DNA of 20,000 nt. It comes from an uncultured virus (IMG/VR IMGVR_UViG_3300035670_000196). Its lineage: Duplodnaviria; Heunggongvirae; Uroviricota; Caudoviricetes. Of the stretch, positions 2,598 to 20,000 are shown one piece after another. Numbering within the stretch: position 1 is the stretch's first letter; every line of letters starts with the position of its first letter. The DNA lies in IMG/VR virus record IMGVR_UViG_3300035670_000196; one strand, written 5' to 3'. The notes under the pieces were generated by a model, which had not been told where the DNA came from, did no database searches, and saw only the letters and a list, made by a program, of their open reading frames with translations. The translations under genes and the position numbers were made by a program.

Positions 2598-3876
2598 TAT
2601 AGCGACTAAGTCCGTGAAGGCTAAATTGGTTCGGGAGGGCTTTGACCTGACTGAGACGAAAAGAGCTTTCAATGAAGTCGTTGAATTCTATTTTCTGCTT
2701 GTCTCAACCCGCCCAGAAGGGATAGATATTCCCGTCTCTGATGATGGCGGATGGCGGTTTTACGAGATCCTGACGCAGGATAATGGTGAATTTCCTTTGC
2801 CATTTGCGGGTTTTCCGTCGTCCCTAAAGCGAGCTGCTATACGTCGTGCAATCGGCGCTTATAGCGCTTGGGATACGGCTTACCAGAAGTGGATAAATCG
2901 CCCTGAGAAGTACAAACATCATCGTCCCCCTGTTCAACCAAGAACGTTTTCCTTTTCCCCTCAGATGGATAAAGGAATGTGGAAAGACGATGACGGAGAA
3001 TCTATCGTACTAAAAATATTGATGGGTTCCCAATGGAAGTGGATTAAATTCCGATACCATTCTCGGGAGATTGGCGACGATTGGGTAAAAGGATCTCCTA
3101 GCCTCATCGTCAAGGGTAATAACGTTAGCATCGTTTTCCCTTTAGAGCGGTATGTCCCTGCTACTGGCGGATTGAAAACCGTTCTCAAAAAAGATATTGT
3201 TCGAGTCGCGTCAGTGGACGTTGACTTGGACGATCATCTTGCTATTGTTTCGATTCTAGAAAGCAAAGCTAGCGGAGAAGTGAGAGAACTGGCACGTCAC
3301 TTTATCTCCACACCTCTGGTAAAGCTTAGGAAGCGCGATTTAGGTCGAGTTGCAATTAAGATGTCACAGACAAAAATCGTTTGTGAAGGCTTTGCTTCTA
3401 ACCTATGGACTAAACTTCATAACCGTGAAGTTGAAATGGGTAGAGCAGCCGCTAGGCAAGTTGTAGATTTATCCGTTGGGTATGGTTGCGAAGTCATCGC
3501 CTTTGAGCACTTGACGAACCTTAAACCAGCCAAAGGTAAATATTCAAAGCGTTCAAACAAAAAACGAGCTTATTGGCTTAAGTCTCGTCTTTTTAGCGAA
3601 ACCAATAGAGTCGCCTACAACGAGTTTGGCATCTTGACAACCCGTGTTTCTCCACGAAATACGTCTCGACTAGACCCTTGGGGTAACGCGGTAAACCGTG
3701 GCTCCACACCTACGGCAGAAGGCTATCATGCTGGTGCTGATTGGGTGAACGGGCCACGCGGTTACAAGGCCCATTCTGGGATCAACGCAGCGAGAAATAT
3801 TGGGTTGAAAGCGATAGCAAGACACAGCACTAACCCGCCGACGCTTTACTTAGGTAAAGAAAAACCAGTCGGATAA
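2569..3876 (+). CDS. tnpB: TnpB-like RNA-guided RuvC protein with atypical active site
   Basis: Follows IS607 tnpA. RuvC-I VASVDVD (D217), RuvC-II VIAFEHL (E313), VSPRNTSR, and RuvC-III HSGINAARNIG with G404 where D is normally found. No CxxC zinc finger. Confidence 0.85.
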   Translation: MGLKRKKGFNIATKSVKAKLVREGFDLTETKRAFNEVVEFYFLLVSTRPEGIDIPVSDDGGWRFYEILTQDNGEFPLPFAGFPSSLKRAAIRRAIGAYSAWDTAYQKWINRPEKYKHHRPPVQPRTFSFSPQMDKGMWKDDDGESIVLKILMGSQWKWIKFRYHSREIGDDWVKGSPSLIVKGNNVSIVFPLERYVPATGGLKTVLKKDIVRVASVDVDLDDHLAIVSILESKASGEVRELARHFISTPLVKLRKRDLGRVAIKMSQTKIVCEGFASNLWTKLHNREVEMGRAAARQVVDLSVGYGCEVIAFEHLTNLKPAKGKYSKRSNKKRAYWLKSRLFSETNRVAYNEFGILTTRVSPRNTSRLDPWGNAVNRGSTPTAEGYHAGADWVNGPRGYKAHSGINAARNIGLKAIARHSTNPPTLYLGKEKPVG

Positions 3877-4157
3877 AAGCGGGGAAAGCCTTTAGCAGTA
3901 ATGCTTTGGGTCTGGGTATTGGCTAGTAAAACGTTCCCAGGCGTTATCAATATCCTAGCAGGCTTGGGGAAACTGCCTAACCCTTTCCTACCATTTACGG
4001 ATCTAGCGGTAGAGCCTACGGCTCAATAGCTGCTTTATCTCGCTTACAGAGGAGAGGAGAAAGTGAACCGTTTTCGGAAAGGTCGCGTTTTATTCCGACT
4101 CATTACGTTTTACGGGTTCCTCGTAATGACCGCTCAGCTATCCCACACTATTCACAA
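3877..4157 (+). ncRNA. Putative TnpB omegaRNA (scaffold to ~4137 plus 3' guide)
   Basis: Noncoding region just 3' of tnpB with several hairpins (GCA-GTAA-TGC, GAGCC-TAC-GGCTC, TCATTACG 4100-4107 / CGTAATGA 4122-4129) and a possible long-range pair AGCGGT 4005-4010 / ACCGCT 4129-4134. Confidence 0.6.
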
Positions 4158-4196
4158 TACATTCAGTCGGCTGTGACACTTATTTTTATTGGCACA
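4138..4196 (-). promoter_or_regulatory. Repeated promoter/operator motif, copy B (truncated at the -10 element)
   Basis: TGTGACACTTATTTTTATTGGCACA at 4172-4196 is identical to 5242-5266. CTATCCCACAC at 4138-4148 is at the same offset. The downstream part of the motif is absent. Confidence 0.75.
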
Positions 4197-4210
4197 CTGC
4201 CCAAAATCAG

Positions 4211-4319
4211 GGTTTTCACAAGTTTTCACACAGCTCAAAAAGTTTTCACATCGCGAACGCTATATATACCAATACTTTTAAGCCCTGCGTGTGAAAACTT
4301 TTGAAAACTTGTGAAAACT
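4211..4319. repeat. Inverted array of 10-bp repeats (AGTTTTCACA x3, facing TGTGAAAACT x3)
   Basis: Units at 4211, 4221 and 4241, with inverted units at 4290, 4300 and 4310, around an AT-rich core. Confidence 0.85.
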
Positions 4320-4602
4320 CCTAAAAGTTCTTGTGTTTTGCGCGGTGTGTGTGCTACGGCTAAGTGTGTACTGAGTTATAGGGATACAGTGTGGCGAACA
4401 ATCGACAGCAATTTACTCTGTCTGTCTCCAATGAGCTGATGATAATTTTAGAAAGTGTGAGTGAGTCTGCTGGCATTAGCAAGGCTGAGGTTGCCCGCTG
4501 GGTTTTGCTGCAGGGATTGCTGGAGCTGCGAAAGGATTTGAAGGCAAAATAAAATTCCCCTGGGGTTAGGGGCGTTAAAAGCGACTGTTTTTTTTAAATC
4601 AA

Positions 4603-5404: not shown

Positions 5405-5785
5405 TTAAAACCGCTCCAACCACGCGTCTAGCTCGTGCCAGTCGCCAGGGCTTCTGATTAGCCAAGGCAGGTTGGCAATTGCTTGCGGTCGCTTGCTGCT
5501 CTCTTTTAACTCGTCTGAATTTAGCGTAGTCATTACGGCGGTTAGCGCCGCAAGTTGCGCTACAGCATCATGAGCCGTGACTTTTGCTTTTAGTCGCGAT
5601 TTAGTGCGATGCACACGGGTTTTGCTTTTCACCCTGGGATGCTGCTCCCAGGGAGCTAGGGTAACGGTCATTGTACTAAAGCTAATCTGCGGATCAAAAA
5701 TATTGATCGGCAGTAAAGCATACAGGCTCCAATGGCCAACGGGATGCTGCTGTTTTTGCAGCTCTTGAAACGTTGGGATGATCAT
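5405..5785 (-). CDS. Hypothetical protein
   Basis: 126-aa ORF with an ATGA overlap to the upstream gene. Confidence 0.7.
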   Translation of the reverse strand: MIIPTFQELQKQQHPVGHWSLYALLPINIFDPQISFSTMTVTLAPWEQHPRVKSKTRVHRTKSRLKAKVTAHDAVAQLAALTAVMTTLNSDELKESSKRPQAIANLPWLIRSPGDWHELDAWLERF

Positions 5786-6171
5786 AACCGTACCTTGGTT
5801 GTATCAACCAAGCCTCTAAACCCCTTAGGCAGTCGAATCGCCGTCCCCCCTTTATGAGGGACAATGACGACTCGCTTTTCGGTCGATCTCCACTCTGGAC
5901 CAAGGGCTTTGTGTTTTTCCCTGAATTGCTTCATCCATTTGACAGCACGTTTCGGCGGCTCGTGCCAACTGACCGAACCTTTTTCGTCGATCGCAATGTG
6001 GCCAATTAGTGAGCACGTAGCCAGACGAAACACAGGAGTTCCTGTGTAAATTCGCACTGTCTGTGTTTGTGAACCAGTAGCGAACTGATACCCGTCAACT
6101 AGGGTCACTTGCCATCGTGACCCTACCGAAACTCTGAAACGAATCAACCGTTCTGCTGCTATCTTTGCCAT
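5782..6171 (-). CDS. Hypothetical protein
   Basis: 129-aa ORF with an AGGGAG RBS; shares a QVxLxxGYQFAxGSxTxTV motif with the adjacent small ORF. Confidence 0.75.
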   Translation of the reverse strand: MAKIAAERLIRFRVSVGSRWQVTLVDGYQFATGSQTQTVRIYTGTPVFRLATCSLIGHIAIDEKGSVSWHEPPKRAVKWMKQFREKHKALGPEWRSTEKRVVIVPHKGGTAIRLPKGFRGLVDTTKVRL

Positions 6172-6184
6172 GTTTTTTTGCTCC

Positions 6185-6364
6185 CTAAACTAACTTATTT
6201 TGACCGGAATTATCGATATACAATTGGGCCACTTGCACGTTATTTTTATACACTGCAAAGACTTCGGAAACTATTACAGTTCTTGTCTTGCTACCATTAG
6301 CAAACTGATATCCTGAATCTAAGTTCACCTGATAGCCTTGTTTTGTTTTTCTTACATTAAGCAT
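6185..6364 (-). CDS. Small hypothetical protein, paralog of 5782..6171
   Basis: Manual translation (59 aa): MLNVRKTKQGYQVNLDSGYQFANGSKTRTVIVSEVFAVYKNNVQVAQLYIDNSGQNKLV. Confidence 0.7.
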   Translation of the reverse strand: MLNVRKTKQGYQVNLDSGYQFANGSKTRTVIVSEVFAVYKNNVQVAQLYIDNSGQNKLV

Positions 6365-6550
6365 CGTCTTCTTCCTCTACGGATGTGATTGTAAATTGAG
6401 CGTGAAAATATGACACTTGCATTTTTAGATATGCACGCATCAACTCCTTGCGTCGGAGATCCGCATCATGTCGCGACGGGTAGCGTTCAACCCGTCGCTT
6501 GTAGCCATCGAGCGGATCCCCGTATGTAAGCAATACGGGAATAGCATGTG

Positions 6551-6664
6551 TTACTGTCCCTTTTTCTTTTTCAATGTCTCTTGACGCTTAATCTCAGCAT
6601 CTTTACGTTGTTGCTTGTTTTTTGCAATAGACTCTTGTAGTTTTTGCCGTGGATCGTATGCCAT
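6551..6664 (-). CDS. Small basic coiled-coil protein
   Basis: MAYDPRQKLQESIAKNKQQRKDAEIKRQETLKKKKGQ (37 aa) with a strong AAGGAGG RBS. Confidence 0.65.
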   Translation of the reverse strand: MAYDPRQKLQESIAKNKQQRKDAEIKRQETLKKKKGQ

Positions 6665-6665
6665 G

Positions 6666-6833
6666 CTATTTCCCTCCTTTTACGAGCAAATGCCCGCTGT
6701 TATTTAATGCTTGAAACTGAGACCATACGTAAAACTCTACGCCTGCTGGCGGATCAGACAACCCCAGCAATTCAGCGTAATCCGAAGCTTTAATGGTGCG
6801 GGTCAACACTGCCCGCTTTACAATGTTGTCCAT
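6666..6833 (-). CDS. Small hypothetical protein
   Basis: MDNIVKRAVLTRTIKASDYAELLGLSDPPAGVEFYVWSQFQALNNSGHLLVKGGK (55 aa), tightly packed between its neighbours. Confidence 0.6.
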   Translation of the reverse strand: MDNIVKRAVLTRTIKASDYAELLGLSDPPAGVEFYVWSQFQALNNSGHLLVKGGK

Positions 6834-7745: not shown

Positions 7746-8717
7746 ATGAAAATCAACGTAGAAACAGTATCATTCCTAAATGATTTACCCTCATTAGTTG
7801 GGCCATGGGCTCAAGTGACGGGGGACGATTGCCGCCAGGTTATCGATACCTATTTAGAGATGGGTATCTCTGCTGATGAGGCGGCTGCTACTTTTGACGC
7901 TATTGATAAGCTAGAGGGCTTTGTTGCTGCAGCTGCATCGGGAGCCGCACAACCTGATTACTGGTTGTCCGTTCACATTGATGAGAGCGGATTGATTGAC
8001 AAAGCTTTTGGCCCTTGCGTGATGGCTAACGATAATGGGCAGCAAGTGTTAGTGATTGGTCAGACTCAATACCCCATTGCAATCAAAGGGTTATCTGCCA
8101 CTGTCGGAGAGCTAGAAGGCGACATTGAAGTTGCCGAAATCGACGGAGTAGGCGACGATGGCAAGCCGATCAAGTTTTTGGCCGCGTCAATCGACTTTGA
8201 GTTGCTGTCAATTCCAATCATTCTGCAAAAAGTTGGGCTAACTAAGGCTCAGTTTAAAACCGGTCTTAAAGCTGGTCAGGTTGGTCAATACCTAAAAGTT
8301 GCCGGGGCTGGCAACTGGGTATCGATGAACGAGTTAGAGCTAGGCGAATACCTGGTTTCTGGCTTAGTCGAAAACCCTGTACATTCTGAATATGGGCGAT
8401 CTTGGACGATGACCCTGGAGGGCATTGGCGAAGTACGGTCTAAAGGCAAGCGGTTTGAGTCGATCCTAACGATGCGTGCTGGCGTGTTCATGAAGCTGTT
8501 AGCTAACGGTCGACCATTGACCCTTTGTGTCAGCTCTAAAGAGCAGCTAACCCAGGGGATGCGGGTAGATGCTGGCTTTTTCATGCGGGCTCCTAACCCC
8601 GAGAAAATGCCAGTATTAGCATCTGCTGCAAAATCTGCAGCATTGCCTGCACAAGCACAGCCCGCATTAAAGTCTGCTGCACCCGATGACGATGATCAGG
8701 AAGAACTAGAGTTCTAA
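7746..8717 (+). CDS. Hypothetical protein, possibly an ssDNA-binding protein
   Basis: 323 aa from ATG 7746; Ala/Pro linker and acidic C-terminal tail ending in Phe (DDDDQEELEF); directly upstream of the helicase. Confidence 0.6.
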   Translation: MKINVETVSFLNDLPSLVGPWAQVTGDDCRQVIDTYLEMGISADEAAATFDAIDKLEGFVAAAASGAAQPDYWLSVHIDESGLIDKAFGPCVMANDNGQQVLVIGQTQYPIAIKGLSATVGELEGDIEVAEIDGVGDDGKPIKFLAASIDFELLSIPIILQKVGLTKAQFKTGLKAGQVGQYLKVAGAGNWVSMNELELGEYLVSGLVENPVHSEYGRSWTMTLEGIGEVRSKGKRFESILTMRAGVFMKLLANGRPLTLCVSSKEQLTQGMRVDAGFFMRAPNPEKMPVLASAAKSAALPAQAQPALKSAAPDDDDQEELEF

Positions 8718-8776
8718 CCCCCACACGTCACCCCAAACATAAAAAGCCCCCACAAAGCAAAAAAGCCTAGTGGGGG

Positions 8777-10690
8777 TTGTCCGTAGTTAATAGGAACAGG
8801 AGCAAGCCAGTGGTATTAGCTAGCAGCCGAAGATTAGCGGTTGATTCAACGATAGAAGACCAATACAAAATTGTCAAGGCAGCATTACTCGCGATCGCCG
8901 GTGTTTGTGATGGCGCAGCTACCAACGACGGGGCGGGGTTTAACGCCATGGATGCCTATCGTGGGCGGTATTTAGCCGACACTGCCCAATGCGACGAACT
9001 GAGCCCCACCGAACTGTATGAGGCATGGAAGCTATGTCGTAAGTACTGGCGGCAACTGAAAAAATCGGGGATTGTACTGCCGAAGACTTGGCGGAATGAA
9101 TACCGGCTGGAAGGAATGACCGTACACAACTTGAGCAAAGGTAGCAGCTATAACCTCACATGGATCGGGGATGAGGATCTAGCCTGCGAGTGTGAGGCGT
9201 ATAAGGCAGGGCACGAGTGCGGGCACATCAAGTTTGCAATCCCGTTGTTCGATAAGCCTTACGCTGAGTTTGACGATGTAGAGGATGTGATGGAGTCAGC
9301 CCCACCGCCAGCCCCCACGACAACCGATGTAGAACTGCTACCGGGCATCACGGCCACGGCAGATCAGGCTAAGGCGCTGGATGAACTGCTGGGATTTGTC
9401 CAAGACCGCACGGCAACTATTCATTTATTAACGGGCTATTCGGGTACAGGAAAAAGTACCCTAGTGCAAGCCCTTGTCAAGCGACTAAGGGATCAGGGTG
9501 ACCATCGTTCCATCGTGTTCACCGCCCCGACGAACAAGGCCGCTGGGGTGTTACGATCGATGGTCAGTCGATGGGGGTTGGGGATCGATTGCATCACCTG
9601 CGCCAAATTGCTGGGGTTAAGACCGAAAATTGACTTCGAGACGGGGGGGCAAATCTTTGTCAAAGACTATGGACAGGAATCGACAGCTCAAAGCTATGAC
9701 CTGATCGTCGTTGACGAATGCTCGATGGTCAATGTCGATCTTTGCTTTTATCTCACAGAGGAAGCCAACCTAAGGACTCAGCTCCTATTTATGGGTGACC
9801 CAGCCCAGCTGCCCCCCGTCAACGAAGCTATCAGCCCTACCTTTACCGAAGTCGAATCTCAATCCCATTTAGGCGAGGTCAAACGGTACAGCGGCCCTAT
9901 CGCTGTCCTTGCTGACGACATCCGCCGTAACCTAAAGCGAAAAGGGGAGCCCCTATGGGAATCGGATCACACCCCCGCCAAAACCTCTGGGGTATGGGTG
10001 ATGGATGATAAGCAATGGAACGCTGCACTAATTAAGGCGTTCCGTAGCGATGCGTATAAGGCAAACCCCGACTATGTAAGGGCTCTAGCCTGGACAAATC
10101 GCCGTGTTGATGGGCTAAACCGATCGGTGCGGGCTGCAGTCGTTGGAGCCAAGGCACCTCGATTCGTTAGGGGGGAGCGGCTAATTGCAAACGACCCTTA
10201 TTTCATTGAGGGCGAGGGCGATCGCAAAATTGCTGTGTTCCAATCCTCGGACGAAATGGAGATCCTATACGAGCCAACCGAAGGCAAGATCGGAGATTGG
10301 GCGGTATGGTTCTTGTCCGTGCTGGTATTTAGCTCGGGTGAGCAAACGACGATCCCTGTACTGCACGAGTCATCGGTTAAGGAATTTAAGGCGGCACAAG
10401 CCGAACTCGCTAAGCGGGCTAAGGACGGCGAAAAGCAGCTGTGGCAAACATGGCATGATAACAACGGCATGTTTGCTAATGTCACATACGCCTATGCCAT
10501 CACCGTTCACAAAAGCCAAGGCTCGACCTTTGACAACGTGTTTGTCGACATTGGCGACATTCGCGCTAATAAAACCGTAAACCAGATCGAGATTCCCGGC
10601 ATCCCTGGACTGCAATCCGTTTACGAGCGGAATCAACTGCAGTACGTCGCTTGCACTAGGGCGGCACAGCGACTATTTATTCTGGATTAA
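8777..10690 (+). CDS. SF1B (Dda/RecD-like) DNA helicase with N-terminal DGxGFN domain and SWIM zinc finger
   Basis: Walker A GYSGTGKS, TAPTNKAA, VVDECSM, GDPAQLPPV, YAITVHKSQGSTF, YVACTRA; SWIM CECEAYKAGHECGH. The true start may be GTG 8810 (AGGAG RBS). Confidence 0.92.
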   Translation: MSVVNRNRSKPVVLASSRRLAVDSTIEDQYKIVKAALLAIAGVCDGAATNDGAGFNAMDAYRGRYLADTAQCDELSPTELYEAWKLCRKYWRQLKKSGIVLPKTWRNEYRLEGMTVHNLSKGSSYNLTWIGDEDLACECEAYKAGHECGHIKFAIPLFDKPYAEFDDVEDVMESAPPPAPTTTDVELLPGITATADQAKALDELLGFVQDRTATIHLLTGYSGTGKSTLVQALVKRLRDQGDHRSIVFTAPTNKAAGVLRSMVSRWGLGIDCITCAKLLGLRPKIDFETGGQIFVKDYGQESTAQSYDLIVVDECSMVNVDLCFYLTEEANLRTQLLFMGDPAQLPPVNEAISPTFTEVESQSHLGEVKRYSGPIAVLADDIRRNLKRKGEPLWESDHTPAKTSGVWVMDDKQWNAALIKAFRSDAYKANPDYVRALAWTNRRVDGLNRSVRAAVVGAKAPRFVRGERLIANDPYFIEGEGDRKIAVFQSSDEMEILYEPTEGKIGDWAVWFLSVLVFSSGEQTTIPVLHESSVKEFKAAQAELAKRAKDGEKQLWQTWHDNNGMFANVTYAYAITVHKSQGSTFDNVFVDIGDIRANKTVNQIEIPGIPGLQSVYERNQLQYVACTRAAQRLFILD

Positions 10691-10695
10691 AAAAA

Positions 10696-10758
10696 GTGTC
10701 ACACTATCCCACACAAATTCTATTTTGTGTGGGATAGTGAAAAGGTAGCTAAGAGAGT
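10696..10758 (+). promoter_or_regulatory. Repeated promoter/operator motif, copy D (contains a perfect 16-bp inverted repeat)
   Basis: GTGTCACA followed by CACTATCCCACACAAA-N6-TTTGTGTGGGATAGTG (10702-10739) and AAAAGGTAGCTAAGAGAG before the MTase ATG. Confidence 0.8.
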
Positions 10759-10761
10759 GAC

Positions 10762-11412
10762 ATGAAACTACTTGATTTATTTTGTGGTGCTGGTGGTGCC
10801 GCCGAGGGGTACCGTCGATCAGGGTTTGACGTCACCGGCGTAGATATTTCGCCGCAACCACGCTACCCGTTCATTTTTCATCAATGCGATTGGCGCGAGT
10901 ACTTTGATCAGCATTGGTACGAGTACGACGTAATTCACGCATCCCCCCCGTGTCAGGGATACAGCGTATCCCGGCATATCCACAAAGGCTCTAAAGCCCC
11001 GTTGCTGATCGACACTGTTCGAGAAGCGCTAAAAGCCACCGACAAGCCATATATAATCGAAAATGTGGCAGGGGCTAGAAAACACATGATTGCGCCAATC
11101 ACCTTGCGCGGCAATATGTTTGGGCTTCGAGTAATTCGGGATAGATTGTTTGAAAGCAACATTTTGCTGCTGGCACCCAAATTAATTCCCGCTAAGGGCG
11201 GGACTAACAGTCATCGCGGCATGAGTACCGGAGGCGAATATATCTGTGTTGCAGGGAATAATTTTTATGTTGAGGAAGCAAAAGCGGCGATGGGTATCGA
11301 TTGGATGATCGGCAAAGAACTGGCTCAAGCCATTCCTCCCGCGTACACCGAATGGATCGGCAGTCAGGTGAAAAATCAACTCCGCATTAAAGCTGCTGTG
11401 CCAATAAAATAA
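10762..11412 (+). CDS. Orphan C5 cytosine DNA methyltransferase (short phage/plasmid type)
   Basis: Motif I LDLFCGAGG, motif IV ASPPCQ, motif VI IENV, C-terminal AQAIPPAYT. Confidence 0.92.
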   Translation: MKLLDLFCGAGGAAEGYRRSGFDVTGVDISPQPRYPFIFHQCDWREYFDQHWYEYDVIHASPPCQGYSVSRHIHKGSKAPLLIDTVREALKATDKPYIIENVAGARKHMIAPITLRGNMFGLRVIRDRLFESNILLLAPKLIPAKGGTNSHRGMSTGGEYICVAGNNFYVEEAKAAMGIDWMIGKELAQAIPPAYTEWIGSQVKNQLRIKAAVPIK

Positions 11413-11476
11413 AGTGTCACACTATTGCATGCAAATTATAATTTGTGTGGGATAGTGAAAATGTAGTCAAGAGAGA
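11397..11476 (+). promoter_or_regulatory. Repeated promoter/operator motif, copy E
   Basis: TGTGCCAATAAAATAAAGTGTCACA...TTTGTGTGGGATAGTGAAAATGTAGTCAAGAGAG before the ATG at 11485. Confidence 0.8.
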
Positions 11477-11484
11477 CAAAACAC

Positions 11485-11754
11485 ATGAACGCTGATAACA
11501 CTGCCGGAGCTGCTATTGCCAAGACCACGGCACAAACCATGGCTGACAAGCTACAGGGCTATGAATCCTGCTTATTTGATGGGTTGTGGCCATTTGCAGC
11601 TGAAGCCCTAGACCCCTATTTCCCAGAACTCGATAGGGAGCAGCTTCAGGCACTGGCAAAGATTACCGCTAGCGGCATCATTCAAAGCCTGCCCGATACT
11701 TTTGTACTGTGCGGGCTTGGCCGGTATCGCTATGGGCAAGCGTTGCCTGAATAA
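11485..11754 (+). CDS. Hypothetical protein
   Basis: 89-aa ORF bracketed by promoter copy E and a terminator. Confidence 0.75.
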   Translation: MNADNTAGAAIAKTTAQTMADKLQGYESCLFDGLWPFAAEALDPYFPELDREQLQALAKITASGIIQSLPDTFVLCGLGRYRYGQALPE

Positions 11755-12069: not shown

Positions 12070-15000
12070 ATGATTTCTGCAAGTCTCCACGTGGATCAAA
12101 GCGTATTTAGCGGAAAGTTTGATTACAATGCGCAGTGCCCGGTTTGTGATAAAAAGGGCTGCTCAGTCCGGGAAGGCGGCGGCGTCCATTGCACGACACA
12201 CCGCAGCGGCAATAAGGGCGAAACCCTAAACGGGTATGAGTTTGTAGGGGAAGATCGCAGCGGGTTAGGACTGTGGCGGCCCTATGTCGAAAAAGGTAAT
12301 CGCCAAACATCGACATACCGGCTGCAGACGACGGCAAGGACGCTAGAACCAGTCGCACAAATAGACTTAGCCAAACGGGATAGCCAGTTGCGGGCATGGG
12401 CTGAGGAATCGCCTATTACTGGCGAGCAACGACTATTCCTGAAAAACCGAGGGGTTAGCCGGGAGCAGGTGATGCAAGCGGCCAACGACGAAGCTATTTT
12501 TTGGAATATCCAATACGGGGAAGACGGATTTGACAGCACAGGGCTACCCGGTAACTGGACTGAGGACGGCAAATATCAAGGCGTAGAGGGCCTTGCCATC
12601 GCTTGCCGCCAGCGACTAGAACCTAATGGCCCATGGCATATCCTCGGTGCTCAGATCCGCCCCAGCAAGATCAGAGATGGCGGAGGTAAATACTTATGGC
12701 TCAGCAGAGAGGAAGCTTCAGCACGGATCAGCCAATGGGGCGAGTTACCGATCACCGTCCATGAAACCACCGGCACAACGGGGCACTTGACTCTATGCGA
12801 GGGAACGCTCAAACCGTGGCTAATTGCCCAGAGAGCCGACATCCATAGCATTGACTTAGGCGTAGCGATCGTTGGCTGTGCTGGTTCGGCGTGGGCATCA
12901 ACATCATGGACTCAGATCGAGCATCAATGCACTAAAGTGTACGGGGTAAAAGATATTCACTTAGCCCTTGACGCTGGCGCGGTTCAAAACCGTAACGTTT
13001 GGGGTGGAGTCAGACAGCTGGCCCAACGATGCAAAAGAGCAGGCTTAACTTTAAAAATAATCTGGTATGGCCAACTCGAAAAAACTAACGGTGACCTTGA
13101 CGAACTGACGGAAGTCACTCCATACCAGTTGCTAACCGTTAACGAAGTCGAGGCCCAATTCTGCCAGCCTGACGTAATCCCGGCGTCAGCGCTGCTACTC
13201 AAGCCGTCACCTGGGTTTGTCGACGATTACGGGTATCTGCCCGATCACGCTGACATCCTATTACCGGCGATCTCAAAAACGCGATTGACAGCCATCCGCG
13301 CTAACAAAGGGACTGGAAAAACCCAGCTAATTAAAAAACTGGTAACTCAAGCTATCGAGCGAAAACAGCGTGCAATTATCTTCACCCACCGCCTCGCTCT
13401 TGGCGCTGCCCAAGGTGCACTGCTGGGCCTGCCCGTCAAAACTGAGGTCAGAGAATACGGACGGGGCGAAGGGTTTGTTATTACCGTTGACTCCGCTCAC
13501 CCTGGCTCTGGGATGCGGTACAGCGCTGACCATGACCTACAACACGATGGGGGGGGCACTTTAGTCATCATTGACGAGTGCGATCAGGTTTTCGATCACA
13601 TCGCCCACGGCAAGACAGAAATTAAGCGGCACCGCCAAGCCGTGATTGACGAAATCAGCGAAACCCTAGCAGGTGCCCGCAACGTTGTCCTGCTCAGTGC
13701 CGACATTACCGACTGTCACGTTGCCCTAACTCAACAGGCAATGGGCATCACCGACTCGCTAAACATCGTCAATACCACTACACGTAAACTAGGCAATGTA
13801 ACGGTTCATACAAACCCGTTCTCCGTACGATTTGAAGCCGAGCAAGCACTAGAACGGAATGAACGCATTCTAATAAAAGTCAGCGGCCAAAAATCAGACT
13901 CAAATCACGGTACGTCTGCACTGCATGCTTACCTGAAAGCATTATACCCAGAGAAGAAGGGTGTCATTTTTGACGGAAACACACTTAAAGATCCGTCTAA
14001 TCCTGACACTTTTATTAATGGTATAAATGTACTGCAGTGGCTCAGCCATCCTGATCCCGAAGAAAGGCTACGGCGACAAGAGGAGTATTTTGCTCAGTAC
14101 GATTGGGTGATTTTTAACAACGCTTGTGGTACCGGAGTATCGTTTGAGACCCCCCTATTCCACGGTTTTTATCAGATCGAAACTGGGGTAGGGTCAATCC
14201 GTGACGCGGCCCAGGCGACGGCAAGGCTAAGACCTCATTTTTACGAAGACGCCGAGGGTAACCGTCAGCCGCTTCAGCGCCACATCTACTGTGCCCCGAT
14301 TGGCCTTCCTCAGCTGCGATACGGCAATGGGGCGACGGCTCCCAATAAACTTGCAGCGGGCGAAGATAAGGCATGGGAAAAGCTCGTAAGCCAAATACAG
14401 CAAGTCGGGGGGGCTGATTGGTTGCCATCTTCACCGCTCGAATACTCGTCACCACGGGCTCAAGCGTGGTTGGGGTATGCCATTAACCGGGCTGCTGAAT
14501 TTAACGCTGAATCGCTCAACTATGCCCAGGAATTTTGGAAGCAATTACAAGTCGAGGGCTACAGCCTCGGCGACTATAACGGCGATTGGAATCAGATAGG
14601 CGACAGTGAGCAGAAGGCCTATAAAGCCGGGTGCACATCGGCAAGGGATCTGCTACACAGCAAGGCATTAGAACAGATAGCTGCTGAGCCCATGGATGGG
14701 GCAGATGTGGCGAAACTAGCCCAGCAACGGGAGTTGACCCCAAAGGAGCATAGGCAGCTAAAAAAGGGCCGAACCATGGAACGATACGGTCTCGACGAAG
14801 AGACCGTAGATGTCGCCGTCCTTGACGCTGAGCACAACGGCATTTATCACAAACTGATGCTGCGATACCTAGCTGAACAGCCCAAAGCCGTGGCTCAGGA
14901 ACGCGATAAGGTGACAGCATGGCATGAACTAAACGAAGGGTCTCCTTGGGGGCGTGATCTTGCCAAGCGGGCTTATTCACCGAGACTGGCTCTCCTAAGA

Positions 15001-15951
15001 GAACTAGGGGCGATTGCCTTACTAGAATCGGCTAAGAACGGAGAAAAACTTTACAGTGCCCACCCTGATGTTTTGGCGGTAGCAGCTGCAGCCTTGAAGC
15101 GACGGGACGATGTTAAAGACATCCTAGGGCTGACGGTTGGGGTTGAGTCTTATAACAAACGAACGGCTCAAATGGAAATCAAGGTTGATCGCCCGATCGT
15201 AGTCGCTCAGAATTTATTTGAGTTGTTAGGGTACGGACTGTCCCGAATTAAAGAACGGGTTCGGAATGAGCAAGGTAAGCGGCATTGGCAGTTTGAGCTG
15301 ACCGATAGCAAACCGGCGGCGATTGACTGGGTAAAATTCGGGGAAATTCAGGAGAAAATTATGAAAGAACGGGCTGAAAAAGTGGATGGATCACCGGTCA
15401 ATTTAGTGCTGAGAGAGGCCAAAAATGACCCGCTGCCTACTAACAGTGAAAATGAGCTAGAACCTAATGATGACAAGGGTTTCGATGAAAAACAGGCCGG
15501 GACACTAACCTCCATAGATCTAATAGAAACCGAGTTAGTAGGCAGTAAAAATGGCGATACCCGCATCCCTGATTCTGGGGGGGCTGCTGCTGGGGCTGAT
15601 CTGAGGGTCGGTGACCGGGTGATTTACACGGGTGAGGCTCCAAATAGTGCTAGATCTGCCATTCTCCGAGCCATAATGCAGCCGTTACCAGGGGTGATTG
15701 TCTACCAGTTATCGGCTACCGAGGACGGGGCTGCGTGGGGAGCGAGACAGCATGAGGTGTTACTGGTGGATACTGACGAACCATTGGCAATACAGGTGAT
15801 GCGGATGATGCAAGCGGTACGGACGCCCGACGACTGGTCTAAGCTTGGCCGTCAGTACGATGCTGAGACATGGCAAGCTGCTTGGTCTGAGCTAATTGTG
15901 GAGGATGAACAAAAGGCTTTGTTTATCCAGCAAATGATGATGGCGGCTTGA
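12070..15951 (+). CDS. Large replication protein (CyRepA1-like: Zn finger + TOPRIM/DUF3854-like primase + SF2-like origin-binding helicase)
   Basis: N-terminal CPVCDKKGC...VHC; GAQIRP, GKYLWLS, LCEGTLKP, LALDAG, GDLDE (TOPRIM-like); ANKGTGKT, THRLALG, IIDECDQ, LLSADI, GTGVSF, QATARLR (helicase motifs). Confidence 0.85.
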   Translation: MISASLHVDQSVFSGKFDYNAQCPVCDKKGCSVREGGGVHCTTHRSGNKGETLNGYEFVGEDRSGLGLWRPYVEKGNRQTSTYRLQTTARTLEPVAQIDLAKRDSQLRAWAEESPITGEQRLFLKNRGVSREQVMQAANDEAIFWNIQYGEDGFDSTGLPGNWTEDGKYQGVEGLAIACRQRLEPNGPWHILGAQIRPSKIRDGGGKYLWLSREEASARISQWGELPITVHETTGTTGHLTLCEGTLKPWLIAQRADIHSIDLGVAIVGCAGSAWASTSWTQIEHQCTKVYGVKDIHLALDAGAVQNRNVWGGVRQLAQRCKRAGLTLKIIWYGQLEKTNGDLDELTEVTPYQLLTVNEVEAQFCQPDVIPASALLLKPSPGFVDDYGYLPDHADILLPAISKTRLTAIRANKGTGKTQLIKKLVTQAIERKQRAIIFTHRLALGAAQGALLGLPVKTEVREYGRGEGFVITVDSAHPGSGMRYSADHDLQHDGGGTLVIIDECDQVFDHIAHGKTEIKRHRQAVIDEISETLAGARNVVLLSADITDCHVALTQQAMGITDSLNIVNTTTRKLGNVTVHTNPFSVRFEAEQALERNERILIKVSGQKSDSNHGTSALHAYLKALYPEKKGVIFDGNTLKDPSNPDTFINGINVLQWLSHPDPEERLRRQEEYFAQYDWVIFNNACGTGVSFETPLFHGFYQIETGVGSIRDAAQATARLRPHFYEDAEGNRQPLQRHIYCAPIGLPQLRYGNGATAPNKLAAGEDKAWEKLVSQIQQVGGADWLPSSPLEYSSPRAQAWLGYAINRAAEFNAESLNYAQEFWKQLQVEGYSLGDYNGDWNQIGDSEQKAYKAGCTSARDLLHSKALEQIAAEPMDGADVAKLAQQRELTPKEHRQLKKGRTMERYGLDEETVDVAVLDAEHNGIYHKLMLRYLAEQPKAVAQERDKVTAWHELNEGSPWGRDLAKRAYSPRLALLRELGAIALLESAKNGEKLYSAHPDVLAVAAAALKRRDDVKDILGLTVGVESYNKRTAQMEIKVDRPIVVAQNLFELLGYGLSRIKERVRNEQGKRHWQFELTDSKPAAIDWVKFGEIQEKIMKERAEKVDGSPVNLVLREAKNDPLPTNSENELEPNDDKGFDEKQAGTLTSIDLIETELVGSKNGDTRIPDSGGAAAGADLRVGDRVIYTGEAPNSARSAILRAIMQPLPGVIVYQLSATEDGAAWGARQHEVLLVDTDEPLAIQVMRMMQAVRTPDDWSKLGRQYDAETWQAAWSELIVEDEQKALFIQQMMMAA

Positions 15952-15957
15952 TAAAAT
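15949..15957 (+). promoter_or_regulatory. Putative extended -10 promoter for the tRNA-csf transcript
   Basis: TGATAAAAT overlapping the rep stop codon, about 60 nt upstream of the tRNA. Confidence 0.45.
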
Positions 15958-16016
15958 ATAGGGGTTGTTTATCAGGAGACTTCTGCTCTCACTACCGCCC
16001 CACTGCGGGGTTTCTT

Positions 16017-16089
16017 CCGGGTCTGGCCGAGCGGAAAGGCAGCAAACTCATAATTTGCCATTAGGCAGGTTCGACTCCTGCGATCCGGA
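16017..16089 (+). tRNA. tRNA with CAU anticodon (probably tRNA-Ile2; Met possible), CCA not encoded
   Basis: Acceptor CCGGGTC/GATCCGG plus discriminator A; D arm GCC-GAGCGGAAA-GGC; anticodon arm GCAAA-CTCATAA-TTTGC (CAT at 16049-16051); T arm GCAGG-TTCGACT-CCTGC. It resembles cyanobacterial Ile2(CAU) and lacks the initiator GGG/CCC anticodon stem. Confidence 0.9.
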
Positions 16090-16146
16090 TTGCTTTGTAA
16101 CCAATGCTTTTTGTGTAAAAATAAAAAAACTCCTATGGAGATCGGA

Positions 16147-16695
16147 ATGTTATACGGAATACGTGGATGTACAGATCCAGCGACGGCTTATATTAGTTCG
16201 TTGACTTATTGGGTTTTTTCGTGCAGAGATCGCAACAAGACTCCGGCGCAGGGGCTTGAAAAATGGAGCTATCTTGGCTCCGCAATTCAGCAAGCTGCGG
16301 TGACGGCGCAATCGATCGAGCAGTATCAGGCGAATTTGGCCGATCGACTAAAGGCGAAATCTCCGGTATTGAGCCGTTACGCAAAAATGCTGGTGCATGA
16401 AGAAAACCAGCGAGTGATTTTGTTTGGAACTAAAACAGAAGCTGGTTTAACTGATTTACAAGAATTTAGCAGTCACCAAGCATTACCAATTTATGCTAGT
16501 CCCGCTGATGTTTTGCAGGATTTGCTAGCGCAAGGGATACGCGAGTCAGAAATCTTGAAGATTGCCAAACCCACACGATTGGGCGGCAAGCCTTTTGTTG
16601 TGCAAATGTACTGCCAAGTGGCAGATCAGGTGTTTGGGTGGCAACCGCCCGCTGAGGAAGATGAAACGATCGATATCGAAGTGGGGGTCGCCTAA
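16147..16695 (+). CDS. Putative type IV-B small subunit (Cas11-like), helical protein
   Basis: GGAG RBS before ATG 16147; TAATG overlap with csf2; predicted helical content; position matches IV-B operons. No diagnostic motif recognised. Confidence 0.55.
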   Translation: MLYGIRGCTDPATAYISSLTYWVFSCRDRNKTPAQGLEKWSYLGSAIQQAAVTAQSIEQYQANLADRLKAKSPVLSRYAKMLVHEENQRVILFGTKTEAGLTDLQEFSSHQALPIYASPADVLQDLLAQGIRESEILKIAKPTRLGGKPFVVQMYCQVADQVFGWQPPAEEDETIDIEVGVA

Positions 16696-17912
16696 TGTCT
16701 GGAATTGCTGAATACAAGCCTTTTGAGGGGCGGCGGCAAATTAAACTTCACGTCATTTTTGACTTGCAACAGCCGTTGTCTCACATTTCGGAGACAACGG
16801 GAAATGAATCGCTACTGAAGACAACATCGATGGTCGCGATTGATGGCGAGAAAGCGCAGGTGCCGATCTATTCCGGGAATGCGCAACGGAATGGCAACCT
16901 GGGGCGTCGGACGGGTATCGCATCGTTTCTGGATGCGCTGGATGTGGCGGTGAACAAATCGACTCATCAAACGCTATACAGCGGCGGATACATTGAGGGC
17001 AGTACGATTAATGATTTTGAGGCAGAAGAACGCATCCGAAAACTGTTGCCAAATCTTTCTTTGTTGGGTGGAGCGATCCCGCCGGAAACGCTGGGAATGC
17101 CAAAAGGAAAATCCCAGATGATAGAAGGGCGGCTGAATATCGGTGATGCTTATTTGGTTTGCTACGAATCAGTCCCCTACATCTACGAGCAATGTCCGGC
17201 GCTGTTGCCGTGGGAAGCGATGGAGTCGATCGATCTACTGATGGCCCGTCGCCGCAAGTTTATTGATCTGCGCTACGGCTTAGCCGCTGGCAAGGTCGAT
17301 CGGATGGCGGTAAATAAGGCTTGGCAAGCATTAAAGGCAACCGAGGCGGAGCACTTGCCGATTATTCGGCATCATTGCAAGCCGTCTTCCGAATATTGGG
17401 AGTATCGGGAGTCGGTGCGAGTTCCTAGCTATAAGCAGTCTGAGCTATCGCGGCATCTTGCGGGTAGTAAGCCCAAACTGCTAAAAGGTGATGAGGAAAA
17501 GAAAAAAGGAGACAAAAAAGAAGCTGGGCGACAAATGATTTCGGGTGCTTGGGTAATTCAGCGTGGCGCTCAGCTTTACTCTCTCTGGTGTAGCCGTGGA
17601 CAAGGAATTACGCCTCTTGAGGAAGGTGCCTTGGTTAATACGCTGCTGGAGTTTGCTAAGCAGCCCTACCTTGGCGGTAGGGCTAATGCAGGATGTGGCC
17701 TAGTGTCAATATCGATCCGCTGCGAAGCTGATGGGCAGTCGGGGGATTACCTCTCGCTGTCCCAATCGGCGCAGGTGATCAGCGATCGGGCAGCAAATTG
17801 CCACCAACGCTATCAAGATATGGTGCGCATCTACCAAGAGCACATTGCCGAAATCAAGGCGGGTGGCACTGTCGAGTCAGCCGATGCCTTTAATTTATTG
17901 GGGGTAAGCTGA
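16695..17912 (+). CDS. csf2: Type IV CRISPR Cas7-like backbone subunit Csf2
   Basis: LQQPLSH, VPIYSGNAQRNG, LYSGG, LPNLSLLGG, MIEGRLNIG, QMI, and C-terminal Gly-rich loop LGGRANAGCG. Confidence 0.88.
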   Translation: MSGIAEYKPFEGRRQIKLHVIFDLQQPLSHISETTGNESLLKTTSMVAIDGEKAQVPIYSGNAQRNGNLGRRTGIASFLDALDVAVNKSTHQTLYSGGYIEGSTINDFEAEERIRKLLPNLSLLGGAIPPETLGMPKGKSQMIEGRLNIGDAYLVCYESVPYIYEQCPALLPWEAMESIDLLMARRRKFIDLRYGLAAGKVDRMAVNKAWQALKATEAEHLPIIRHHCKPSSEYWEYRESVRVPSYKQSELSRHLAGSKPKLLKGDEEKKKGDKKEAGRQMISGAWVIQRGAQLYSLWCSRGQGITPLEEGALVNTLLEFAKQPYLGGRANAGCGLVSISIRCEADGQSGDYLSLSQSAQVISDRAANCHQRYQDMVRIYQEHIAEIKAGGTVESADAFNLLGVS

Positions 17913-18619
17913 TGCAGCCACTACGAGTAACCGCCCACTTAGCCAATAAATTGGCGGTGAGTGATGATTGGTCGCCGTCGCTTGATGCACTCCTAATTAA
18001 GCTACTACTGGATGAGCGGGGATTATCCAGTAGTAACCCGATGCTGGAAGATGTCGTTCGAAACCAGCCTGTGATTGACGCCAATATGCCGATCTACAAA
18101 GGTGAAATTAAAGGGGAATGGTACTGGCAGACCTCAAGCCCTTGTTATTTGTGGGATGCCGATGAAGTGGAAACCATCTACAAACGATGGGATCAACAAG
18201 AGCGTAACTTGAATTGGCAAGGCAAGCGGCGCAACTGGAGCACATCCGAGAATAATACAAAGTCCTGGACAATCCTTATTTCGGAGCGATCGACCCCGCG
18301 TATCGACTGGTATTGCATCGGTGATGCGCTGGAGATCCAGCGGTTGTTAACTCTGTCTGATAGATTGGCTAAAAAACGTCGGACACAGGTCTATCGATGG
18401 GACGTCGAGGCAATTGATCAAGATTGGCATTTATGGCGTGATCAAGAAATAATGCGGCCAATGCCAGTGGATTTAATTGATACGCCACCTCATGATTTTG
18501 CAATTCGGCGATGGGCATGGCGGCCACCGACGCATTTGCCTGAGAATGTGGCTAAGTGCCTGATGCCTGTAACAACAGCAAAGCGAGTTAAATCAGTTTA
18601 TGTGTGGGGAACGGAGTGA
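17912..18619 (+). CDS. csf3: Type IV CRISPR Cas5-like subunit Csf3
   Basis: MQPLRVTAHL...LDALL, WYCIGDALEIQRLL, LAKKRR, MRPMP, RPP; TGATG coupling to csf2. Confidence 0.8.
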   Translation: MQPLRVTAHLANKLAVSDDWSPSLDALLIKLLLDERGLSSSNPMLEDVVRNQPVIDANMPIYKGEIKGEWYWQTSSPCYLWDADEVETIYKRWDQQERNLNWQGKRRNWSTSENNTKSWTILISERSTPRIDWYCIGDALEIQRLLTLSDRLAKKRRTQVYRWDVEAIDQDWHLWRDQEIMRPMPVDLIDTPPHDFAIRRWAWRPPTHLPENVAKCLMPVTTAKRVKSVYVWGTE

Positions 18620-19314
18620 TGGATCTATTGGAGCGCGAGGCGTTTTCGGTTTATGCGCAGTTGCCAAAATTTAAGCGCAAAGTTAATCAGGCTTTAGTTG
18701 TAATTCGTGAAGCATTAAAAATTGGGCCTGCCTACGTTGCTGTTAGTTGGGGAAAAGATTCGGTGGTGATGCTGCACTTGTGTCAGCAGGTGCAGCCGGA
18801 TATTTTGGCAATCAGCTTTAGCCATCCAGAACGAAGCATGATTTCTAATTATGAAGAGGTAATCGATCAATATCGCCAACGATTTGGCCTGAATTTAAAA
18901 GATATTGCACTAGCTGGCGACCATGTCCCGGCCAAAGTCGAACAGGCTAAGCTTTGGGATACTTGGCCTGTTGGTTTTATTGGATTGAGAAAAGAAGAGT
19001 GCGATCGGAGATCTATGGCATTAATTAAGTATGGATTGCTGCATCAATACCAGTCTGGGAGTAGATCTACTAGTTGGCGTTGCTGCCCGGTTGGTTGGTT
19101 TGGTTGGCGTGATATTTGGGCTTACATTTGTGCAAATAACCTGCCGTACTTGTCAATTTACGATCAGCTTTCCAGAGACCGAGGAAGAACTACAGATCAT
19201 TTATCAAAAACTATGGACAAAGCATGGCAGCAACGCCGATTTGAAGAGATCAAGTTGGTTGCACCAGAATATGCAAAATATTTGCAGGAGAATCATGCAG
19301 AGAATTTCCAGTGA
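18619..19314 (+). CDS. CysH/PAPS-reductase-like PP-loop protein (type IV-B associated)
   Basis: YVAVSWGKDSVVMLHL, FIGLRKEECDRR, PVGWFGWRDIWAYICANNLPYLSIYD; TGATG coupling to csf3. Confidence 0.9.
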   Translation: MDLLEREAFSVYAQLPKFKRKVNQALVVIREALKIGPAYVAVSWGKDSVVMLHLCQQVQPDILAISFSHPERSMISNYEEVIDQYRQRFGLNLKDIALAGDHVPAKVEQAKLWDTWPVGFIGLRKEECDRRSMALIKYGLLHQYQSGSRSTSWRCCPVGWFGWRDIWAYICANNLPYLSIYDQLSRDRGRTTDHLSKTMDKAWQQRRFEEIKLVAPEYAKYLQENHAENFQ

Positions 19315-19669
19315 ATTGCAAAAGCGAAATTATCAGGACGGCGGTGATTTTGTCGCTATGGTTGCCTCTCAGGGGATGGGGTTGCCTCTTGTCGCGGTTG
19401 ATAAATTTGGAGCTGATATTCTTCGGTTTGAACCAGGCCACAAAACGTTGATGCACACCCATCCGGGTGATCATATTTTGTTCGTTGTAAAGGGTGCTGG
19501 GTTTTTGATCTTTGATGGAGAATTCTATAAACTTTCAGCAGGTGACTGTTACTTTGTCCCTGGGTCTGTACCTCATCAGGTCGGAGCTACTATTGCTGAA
19601 TTGCTGTTGCTGTCAGTGGCAAATAATCACCGTCCTGTAGATAGCAAGGAAAGATTAAATGTCGTCTAA
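19295..19669 (+). CDS. Cupin-domain protein (Cupin_2)
   Basis: HTHPGDHILFVVKG...GDCYFVPGSVPH metal-binding motifs; CAGGAG RBS before ATG 19295; overlaps both neighbours. Confidence 0.88.
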   Translation: MQRISSELQKRNYQDGGDFVAMVASQGMGLPLVAVDKFGADILRFEPGHKTLMHTHPGDHILFVVKGAGFLIFDGEFYKLSAGDCYFVPGSVPHQVGATIAELLLLSVANNHRPVDSKERLNVV

Positions 19670-20000
19670 CTGCTACTACTGCGGTGCCGAGGGGGCAACT
19701 CGCCCTCTCCAGATTTCATCAACTTTTACTGCCGCCGGAATAATTAAAGCCGCTCACAGTGATGTGATTTGTGAGCGATGCTATGGCATCATGTTTGGCG
19801 ATATACAACGGGTTTGGCATCACAACAAAGACGACGATCGATGGGTAAAACTGTACCTTCGAGGCATCCATCAACTTTGGCAAGGCGACACGCTATTAGA
19901 GCCACAGTTGGGGCCGCCAGAGGAGCACATACAGGTAAGTAGCACTGGTAAAGTTGGCAAGTCAGAGCGTTATCGAGTGTTATCCGGAGTCCCAAAACGC
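19659..20000 (+). CDS. csf1: Type IV Cas8-like large subunit Csf1 (partial, runs off the window)
   Basis: Manual translation MSSNCYYCGAEGATRPLQISSTFTAAGIIKAAHSDVICERCYGIMF...: CxxC-TFT-CxxC zinc finger as in the Csf1 N-terminus; open to the window end. Confidence 0.72.
   Translation, partial: MSSNCYYCGAEGATRPLQISSTFTAAGIIKAAHSDVICERCYGIMFGDIQRVWHHNKDDDRWVKLYLRGIHQLWQGDTLLEPQLGPPEEHIQVSSTGKVGKSERYRVLSGVPKR

Follow-up and report, generated by a model that had tools for sequence, protein, structure and literature searches.

Introduction

What type IV-B CRISPR (clustered regularly interspaced short palindromic repeat) systems and their CysH-like enzyme do was still called unclear in September 2026 (PMC13676074). 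The subtype definitions followed here are those of PMC7038947 and PMC8175902. Named there as IV-B hosts are Actinobacteria, Archaea, Firmicutes and Proteobacteria, and Cas6 is described as rare in the subtype, with 12 instances (PMC7038947). The CysH-like protein of these systems, CasCysH, is viewed as an adenylating ATP alpha-hydrolase (PMC8175902). Here we describe an operon of this subtype that carries an additional gene, encoding a cupin, between cysH and csf1. It lies at the end of a 20,000-nucleotide (nt) stretch, hereafter the window, of the uncultured virus record IMGVR_UViG_3300035670_000196.

We consider it likely that this locus is an array-less type IV-B cassette of ~5 kb situated at a tRNA gene with anticodon CAU, the tRNA being its insertion site, and that it encodes a Csf complex together with a CysH-cupin enzyme pair. 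The identities of the genes, the strict adjacency of cysH and cupin, the joint replacement of the C-terminal part of CysH with its neighbour and a repeat flanking the operon carry this reading.

Results

The six-gene operon

A preliminary description of the window had proposed a CAU tRNA followed by six overlapping genes (cas11-like, csf2, csf3, cysH-like, cupin and csf1), and this layout is upheld by both open reading frames (ORFs) and profile searches (Table 1). By its defining genes the operon is subtype IV-B: the core genes csf1, csf2 and csf3 are present (csf1 judged from an N-terminal fragment), as are a cas11-like small subunit and a cysH-like gene whose product has the PP-loop and lacks the catalytic cysteine. 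The family profiles of Csf2 and Csf3 agree with solved structures in the PDB. The Csf2 family profile matched Cas7c (11fs, 3.5e-13), IV-B Csf2 (7jhy, 2.9e-9) and IV-A Csf2 (8rc2, 3.8e-9), and the Csf3 profile matched Csf3 (8rc3/7xfz) over its full length at 2.9e-9. Cas11 found no meaningful match in the PDB by sequence; the PADLOC typeIV_Cas11 profile matched 9/9 aligned Cas11 relatives, the best at 5.8e-14. The visible N-terminus of Csf1 contains two CxxC pairs and is 32% identical to the Gloeobacter Csf1, which itself scores 1.4e-24.

Table 1. Features at the right-hand end of the window, with the evidence for each.
Feature	Position	Strand	Evidence or remark
CyRepA1-type plasmid replication protein	12070..15951	+	stop 65 nt before tRNA
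tRNA, anticodon CAU	16017..16089	+	Rfam tRNA 49.6 bits (gathering 29), permissive run
attL-like core, 26 nt (T-arm and 3′ acceptor strand)	16063..16088	+	exact copy further downstream
cas11 (type IV small subunit), 182 amino acids (aa)	16147..16695	+	PADLOC typeIV_Cas11 3.6e-5
csf2 (Cas7 backbone), 405 aa	16695..17912	+	PADLOC typeIV_Cas7 4.5e-37; NCBIfam cas7_csf2 7.2e-7
csf3 (Cas5), 235 aa	17912..18619	+	PADLOC typeIV_Cas5 4.2e-28
cysH-like (CasCysH) PP-loop enzyme, 231 aa	18619..19314	+	Pfam PAPS_reduct 7.3e-12
SbzM-like single-domain cupin, 124 aa	19295..19669	+	Pfam Cupin_2 1.8e-14
csf1 (small Cas8-like large subunit), N-terminal 114 aa only, gene cut by window end	19659..20000	+	PADLOC typeIV_Cas8 2e-5

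The genes are tightly packed. GGAG lies 6 nt 5′ of the ATG of cas11, and the successive junctions overlap by 1, 1, 1, 20 and 11 nt, being either of the TAATG/TGATG type or 11-20 nt long. The third overlap becomes 16 nt if cysH begins at the GTG at 18604 that opens its ORF; the ATG at 18619 is the likelier start. Compared with the closest relative with readable DNA, the metagenome contig L002 (locus numbers are our own handles), cas11 has a proportion of nonsynonymous differences (pN) of 0.107 and of synonymous differences (pS) of 0.816. The N-terminus of csf2 gives pN 0.083 and pS 0.862, so that pN/pS across both genes is ~0.10-0.13 and these operon genes are under purifying selection. One could suppose that the locus has lost its function and is in decay, given that it has no array, cas6, adaptation genes or nuclease and that csf1 is cut by the window end. 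We regard this as exceedingly improbable, in view of the low pN, of six frames that are all open and translationally coupled, of intact catalytic-type motifs and of an architecture retained at 32-37% protein identity in other lineages.

Relatives of the operon are few. Among 5.8 billion proteins the Csf2 clade comprises 27 clusters, one of them the window's own, with 18 more at 64-79% identity and another 8 at 40-48%, and it was found in 1 of 401 sampled cyanobacterial genomes (the centre genome only). A first scan of genome contigs with a profile of close relatives gave no match. In L002 the Csf2 is 87% identical to that of the window and the Cas11 orthologue is 83% identical, with a common start MLYG. 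The other readable loci are on the Gloeobacter morelensis plasmid pGMOR1 (Csf2 identity 32%), on 24 IMG/VR contigs (~36-39%), on three contigs of cyanobacterial metagenome-assembled genomes and on another four IMG/VR contigs that the cupin search brought up. In its plain form this lineage has the order cas11-csf2-csf3-cysH-csf1, seen in L027-L029, L004/L024, L008 and L010.

The cupin and its tie to cysH

The preliminary description had taken the cupin to be a dedicated extra component of the operon, and comparison of loci bears this out. Like the Csf2 clade the cupin subfamily is small, with 21 clusters in the same 5.8 billion proteins. Cluster P0180 of the cupin and cluster P0005 of Csf2 agree in the length of their longest contig, 46,207. 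A search of IMG/VR with the cupin returned 11 loci, and in all 8 of those with at least 49% identity the cupin belongs to a type IV locus and directly follows cysH. The three distant cupins (35-42% identity; L107-L109) had no cysH or csf match nearby, and their neighbours, ORFs that were chosen crudely, had no informative Pfam matches. Including the window and pGMOR1, cysH and cupin are adjacent on 10/10 contigs. This adjacency is kept through six gene orders: csf3-cysH-cupin-csf1; csf2-cas6-csf3-cysH-cupin-csf1; csf3-cysH-cupin-cas6; cas6-cysH-cupin-csf3-csf1; csf1-csf2-cysH-cupin-csf3; and cysH-cupin-csf1 divergent from csf2-cas6-csf3.

Moreover, the cupin co-varies with part of CysH. Within one phage backbone Csf2 is 96-100%, Csf3 96-99%, Cas6 92-98% and CysH residues 1-66 are 94-96% identical, whereas from residue 67 to its end CysH is only 32-39% identical between the cupin-linked and the other variants. 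This divergence coincides with a change downstream, where the next gene encodes either a cupin or a weak Coq4-like protein, or is missing. The motifs HPER, GDHVP and RTTDH are common to cupin-linked CysH proteins and missing from the others. On a cysH tree of 21 rows, near-copies included, the cupin label requires 2 changes against a mean of 6.6 in shuffled trees, and 0/500 shuffles were as low. The swaps of the CysH C-terminal part together with the neighbouring gene point to where specificity lies.

Structure prediction of CysH and cupin as a complex, using custom alignments, scored 0.46, the best of three controls being 0.00; agreement between runs was at least 89% of contacts, and the predicted local distance difference test (pLDDT) value of the partner was at least 83. 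Of 157 solved complexes 116 attained the mark used, as did 2 of 215 mismatched pairs; at scores of 0.60 or lower, those attaining it were only 18 of the 157 and both of the passing mismatches.

Resemblance of the two proteins to known enzymes

The closest solved relative of the cupin is by far the enzyme SbzM. Its profile hit 9ug7 (SbzM) at 3.7e-22, the next match being 7.2e-13, and a structural model (pLDDT 89.4) retrieved the same entry first in Foldseek, with 40% identity, a root-mean-square deviation (rmsd) of 1.5 Å and a template modelling (TM) score of 0.75. An alignment of 23 sequences has an invariant HTHxGxH, two more invariant histidines and one invariant arginine. The protein thus has what is expected of an SbzM-type cupin: the cupin fold, a histidine-rich metal site and SbzM as closest similarity. 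SbzM itself is a Ni/Fe cupin that oxidises and decarboxylates L-cysteine with O2 and forms an S-N bond (PMC6331615, PMC10989515, PMC13126184), the Ni- or Fe-dependent product being 2-sulfamoylacetic aldehyde (PMC6331615).

A different role can be envisaged for the cupin, that of a non-catalytic ligand sensor that regulates the operon or CysH, in the manner of the cupin domains of AraC-type regulators. It is a small single-domain protein, it also matches Pfam AraC_binding above the cut-off (3.3e-6), and many cupins merely bind ligands. However, no DNA-binding domain is attached, the HTHxGxH motif, the two further histidines and the arginine are invariant across the alignment, the margin by which SbzM is the closest structure is wide, and sister loci fill the same slot with other enzyme-like proteins. 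We consider a sensor unlikely and continue to read the cupin as a putative enzyme.

The CysH-like protein carries the motif S-x-G-K-D-S, invariant in 16/16 aligned sequences (SWGKDS in the window), and has no cysteine near its C-terminus. Its profile matched 3′-phosphoadenosine 5′-phosphosulfate (PAPS) reductase (2o8v, 9.6e-11) and CysD (1zun, 2.3e-10) in the PDB. Because it is a PP-loop ATP pyrophosphatase without the reductase cysteine, we read it as a probable adenylating enzyme, in agreement with the published view of CasCysH (PMC8175902). Pairing of such a CysH-type enzyme with a cupin of cysteine-oxidising type suggests coupled sulfur and adenylate chemistry.

The tRNA and a probable insertion site

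The tRNA is the sole one in the window and lies 57 nt upstream of cas11 on the shared strand. ARAGORN called it tRNA-Met(cat) at 16016-16090; a fast Rfam run at gathering thresholds over the whole window missed it, and its Rfam score comes from a permissive run on 301 nt. To judge from its sequence, it looks like a diverged copy of the chromosomal cyanobacterial tRNA(CAU) and, contrary to the Met call, Ile2-like (lysidine type). Of 61 cyanobacterial genomes sampled, 20 have such a counterpart, one in each; its core is 84-88% identical in the 13 best, and the stem changes relative to these counterparts are compensatory. Position 1 pairs with position 72, the anticodon stem reads GCAAA/TTTGC and the stems show no initiator features. 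The Ile2-like reading is proposed because the reverse strand matches the Rfam Plastid-ycf2 model (32.2 bits, under the gathering score of that family), which we take to be the antisense of plastid trnI-CAU.

Insertion at a tRNA gene typically leaves an intact tRNA gene on one side of a piece of DNA and a copy of its 3′ end on the other. Here, a second exact copy of the 26-nt core occurs on the same strand 1,048 nt past position 20000 (~21048-21073), in contigs of 3 runs, and the intact tRNA and this copy bracket ~5 kb with the operon. Because the repeat of its 3′ end brackets the cassette, the tRNA is best read as an insertion site (attL/attR-like) and not as a component. In L024 a related operon likewise forms an insert, of 4.06 kb, flanked by direct repeats of 25 nt; the sister contigs L054 and L097, in which the flanks are joined, do not have it.

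Two side observations concern L024. Two copies, 88% identical, of a 42-nt sequence resembling a promoter (TTGACA followed by a TAxATT box) lie at 6402-6443 and at 3098-3139, one of them directly upstream of cas11. It would seem that a phage promoter is either carried by the inserted operon or reused by it. A long run of degenerate 5-nt repeats of GGTxx type lies at 3899-4477, upstream of that operon.

The preliminary description had placed the tRNA at the head of the operon as a possible functional partner. On such a reading the tRNA, or a co-transcribed leader, would be the RNA partner of the Csf complex or a substrate of the PP-loop enzyme, much as TilS acts on tRNA-Ile(CAU). The position and strand of the tRNA are in keeping with it, as are a tRNA of the same type 670 nt 3′ of csf1 in L004 and L024, a weak match of the CysH-like protein to the TilS N-domain (NCBIfam, 3.6e-4) and the report that a Mycobacterium IV-B complex bound heterogeneous non-CRISPR RNA (PMC8175902). 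However, L002, the closest visible relative, has neither a tRNA nor any conserved sequence upstream of cas11, where other genes are found. Of 33 related type IV loci only 2, L004 and L024 (copies of one element), have such a tRNA nearby, and in L024 it stands outside the repeat-bounded insert. The tRNA core occurs on 52 IMG/VR contigs, 43 of which form one related group, and 50 of the 52 have no type IV genes within 6 kb; among GenBank phages the tRNA had no match. The TilS match is generic PP-loop similarity, PAPS reductase and CysD scoring better, and the 3′ end of the tRNA is duplicated on the far side of the operon in the window. Taken together, a tRNA partner is very unlikely, and the role of RNA cargo first proposed is not supported. 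A codon-supply role for the operon gains no support either, because AUA is not enriched (8/78 Ile codons in the operon against 26/180 in the other genes of the window).

Nor was the putative promoter ahead of the tRNA recovered: a consensus scan of the + strand at 15500-16150 found no sigma-70-like site, and 15500-20000 held 3 such sites against 6.1 ± 2.4 expected.

Array, Cas6 and the source of guide RNA

The absence of an array, cas6, cas1/2 and dinG from the window, as first described, was corroborated. There is no CRISPR array-like repeat in 15949-20000, no Cas6 remnant at E ≤ 0.1 in the operon region, and no dinG or cas1/2 among the Pfam matches of the other ORFs of the window. Arrays were also absent from the fetched flanks of related loci and from the whole of a 73-kb phage record rated 95% complete, and no credible mini-arrays or two-copy repeats were found near the operons. 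Two repeats that came up, a 72-nt tandem repeat in G408 and a 28-nt scattered repeat in the Gloeobacter plasmid, were rejected as not CRISPR-like. The plasmid pGMOR1 does carry an array, in which 8 repeats of 37 nt alternate with spacers of ~35 nt (L126:3012-3562; NZ_CP063846.1, ~142,312-142,862). It lies between two genes annotated as transposases, ~60 kb from the Cas6-bearing type IV locus of that plasmid, with no other cas gene annotated nearby.

In several relatives the operon itself includes a strongly matching Cas6 of I-MYXAN type (Pfam Cas6 up to 1.2e-49). Between cysH and csf1 of L004/L024 there is a 35-residue Cas6 remnant that is 69% identical to a phage Cas6 (L077:4548-4652), which suggests that Cas6 was lost in this lineage.

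These data bear on another possibility, that the Csf complex merely sponges up or borrows the CRISPR RNAs (crRNAs) of co-resident systems, as an anti-CRISPR or as mobile interference, with CysH and cupin as unrelated passengers of sulfur metabolism. Both ideas are in print for IV-B (PMC7038947, PMC8175902), no array adjoins any of the loci, and relatives retain Cas6 or its remnant. Against the passenger role, cysH and cupin are interleaved among the csf genes in several gene orders with overlapping frames, among the IMG/VR loci of at least 49% identity no cupin of this subfamily occurred away from a type IV locus, and the CysH-like protein is without the reductase cysteine needed for sulfate assimilation, a criterion taken from PMC8175902. 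We give this explanation little chance, and hold to a Csf complex working with a CysH-cupin pair.

Setting on the replicon and neighbouring genes

The operon sits on a plasmid-like replicon, in line with the plasmid or phage setting that the preliminary description gave for IV-B systems. The product of the gene directly upstream (12070-15951) matched the NCBIfam model NF042913 (CyRepA1) with E 7.2e-55 and 187 bits, just missing the curated cut-off of 200, and a CyRepA1 gene is also present on the Gloeobacter plasmid with the related type IV locus. Plasmid or phage carriage is evident too from the relatives, which are on that plasmid and on IMG/VR viral contigs. No DNA nearly identical to the window was found among the PLSDB plasmids.

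Further upstream, 5.5 kb from the operon, 8777-10690 encodes a RecD/UvrD-like superfamily 1 helicase (AAA_30, AAA_19, UvrD_C_2), the rep gene standing between helicase and operon. A RecD helicase is used by subtype IV-D. A short C5 DNA-methylase-like ORF (10762-11412) also precedes the rep gene. A serine recombinase with an N-terminal HTH_17/MerR-like domain lies 14 kb from the operon (1953-2597) and is overlapped by a 435-aa ORF without a Pfam match (2569-3876), an arrangement that we presume resembles IS607-type elements. Lastly, the product of 403-1077 on the - strand contains an FGE-sulfatase (formylglycine-generating enzyme-like) domain (E 8.9e-45).

Related loci contain additional genes of their own. 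Between csf2 and csf3, L006 has an extra GIY-YIG nuclease-like ORF, possibly a homing endonuclease (8199-8576), and L008 has an extra ORF of 186 aa without matches (8172-8732). A second, lone csf3-like gene (typeIV_Cas5 3e-26) is found in L003 on the - strand, 3.5 kb from a complete type IV-B operon, and adjoins a 467-aa protein with thymidylate-synthase and PterinBD-DUF4346 domains (9695-11714). DNA-modification genes adjoin the cupin-bearing operon of L100, because a DNA-methyltransferase-like ORF and a Mom-family protein (2.2e-45) directly follow csf1 there (5579-6803).

Discussion

In the model that we consider likely, the four Csf/Cas11 proteins would build an RNA-bound filament, assembled on RNA that is encoded elsewhere, be it host crRNA or another RNA. 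The accessory module would consist of two enzymes, a cysteine-less CysH-like PP-loop ATP pyrophosphatase and a cupin with four conserved metal-site histidines, which may bind each other and the complex. The Csf complex would then act as platform or switch for this pair. The chemistry of the pair may couple adenylation with an oxidative (probably sulfur) reaction, the target being a nucleic acid or a small molecule. The plasmid could profit from the outcome when it comes into conflict with host defence or other mobile elements.

Several points weigh against this model. The slot after cysH is readable in 25 loci, many of them near-copies, and it holds a cupin in 10 and none in 15; because it is missing from 15/25, the cupin is an option and not a universal part. 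The complex prediction for CysH and cupin is a weak pass and gives their binding weak support, and a search for longer cupin-containing proteins, itself weak evidence, returned no fused CysH-cupin protein. An identity of 40% to SbzM leaves the substrate of the cupin unfixed. Relatives often carry Cas6, the pGMOR1 array is 60 kb from its operon, and an array or cas6 may lie elsewhere on the 64.7-kb contig of which the window is 20 kb. As to the insertion, the downstream 26-nt copy is available as coordinates only, from one study that is possibly the window's own source, with 20001 to ~21073 unread. The readable ~4.3 kb, with its six genes, shows no integrase or recombinase, and ~0.7 kb of the insert is unseen if Csf1 is as long as in relatives (~225 aa).

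A more specific form of the model can be stated, which on present evidence is improbable. The Csf filament would control a two-enzyme pathway from cysteine or another thiol to an adenylated sulfur compound, with interchangeable warheads on a mobile cassette of 4-5 kb. The cupin would perform an SbzM-like oxidation and the cysteine-less CysH a CysD-like adenylation, and the product might be a signal or antimetabolite resembling adenosine 5′-phosphosulfate (APS) or sulfamoyl-adenylate, or else nucleic acid might receive a mark that contains sulfur. The warheads, diversified by an arms race, would each combine the C-terminal part of CysH with whatever gene follows it (in the loci read here a cupin, a weak Coq4-like gene or none), and the whole unit would move between plasmids and phages.

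With CysH as its partner enzyme, the cupin offers a concrete biochemical hypothesis, since SbzM chemistry is an O2-dependent oxidation of cysteine on Ni or Fe; thiols, ATP and O2 are candidate substrates. Moreover, the repeat-bounded cassettes indicate that the operon travels as a unit, and the tempting idea of the tRNA as RNA partner is removed as unsupported.

How does the locus compare with what has been described? A search of the literature returned no paper on a cupin associated with IV-B or on these cyanobacterial loci (the supplementary locus tables of PMC7038947 lay outside its coverage), the papers that did come up, one of them on Sulfolobus, being unrelated, and PDB 9UG7 was not found in any paper searched. 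The nearest system is the IV-B locus of the Mycobacterium sp. JS623 plasmid (PDB 7JHY). It is plasmid-borne too and has the same four effector genes and a cysH-like signature gene, whose product has the PP-loop and is without the reductase cysteine. Its operon has no array, cas6, helicase or nuclease, and none is seen in the readable part of the window's operon. In contrast to known IV-B systems, the operon of the window has an extra SbzM-like cupin coupled to cysH, in the order cas11-csf2-csf3-cysH-cupin-csf1. Its lineage is one of cyanobacterial plasmids and phages, its close cousins often carry I-MYXAN-type Cas6, and it shows cassette-like mobility. The Csf2 profile of the window's family also scores slightly better against the IV-C Cas7 structure than against 7JHY.

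The likeness of the cupin to SbzM (PDB 9UG7; altemicidin/SB-203208 sulfonamide synthase) extends over ~101 residues, and the HTHPGxH motif, a later PH and a C-terminal H-x-P-V-D...R stretch are common to both. SbzM differs in having ~215-228 aa with an N-terminal extension, in residing in an actinomycete antibiotic gene cluster and in its partners, which are an aldehyde dehydrogenase and an AMP-ligase and not a PP-loop enzyme. The CysH-like protein has the fold family and the nucleotide-binding PP-loop of the PP-loop/PAPS-reductase superfamily (CysH, CysD, DndC, BrxP). Unlike these it has no C-terminal catalytic cysteine motif, is short at 231 aa and is encoded in a cas operon. Like genomic islets at tRNA 3′ ends, the locus has an intact tRNA at one end and, ~5 kb away at the other, the 3′ 26 nt of that tRNA as a direct repeat; the cassette of the window differs in that no integrase is visible in ~4.3 kb and in that the target tRNA is plasmid-borne. 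We infer that the cupin-bearing cassette is a type IV-B system with an added putative enzyme, the proposed chemistry of which is suggested by its likeness to SbzM and by its pairing with CysH.

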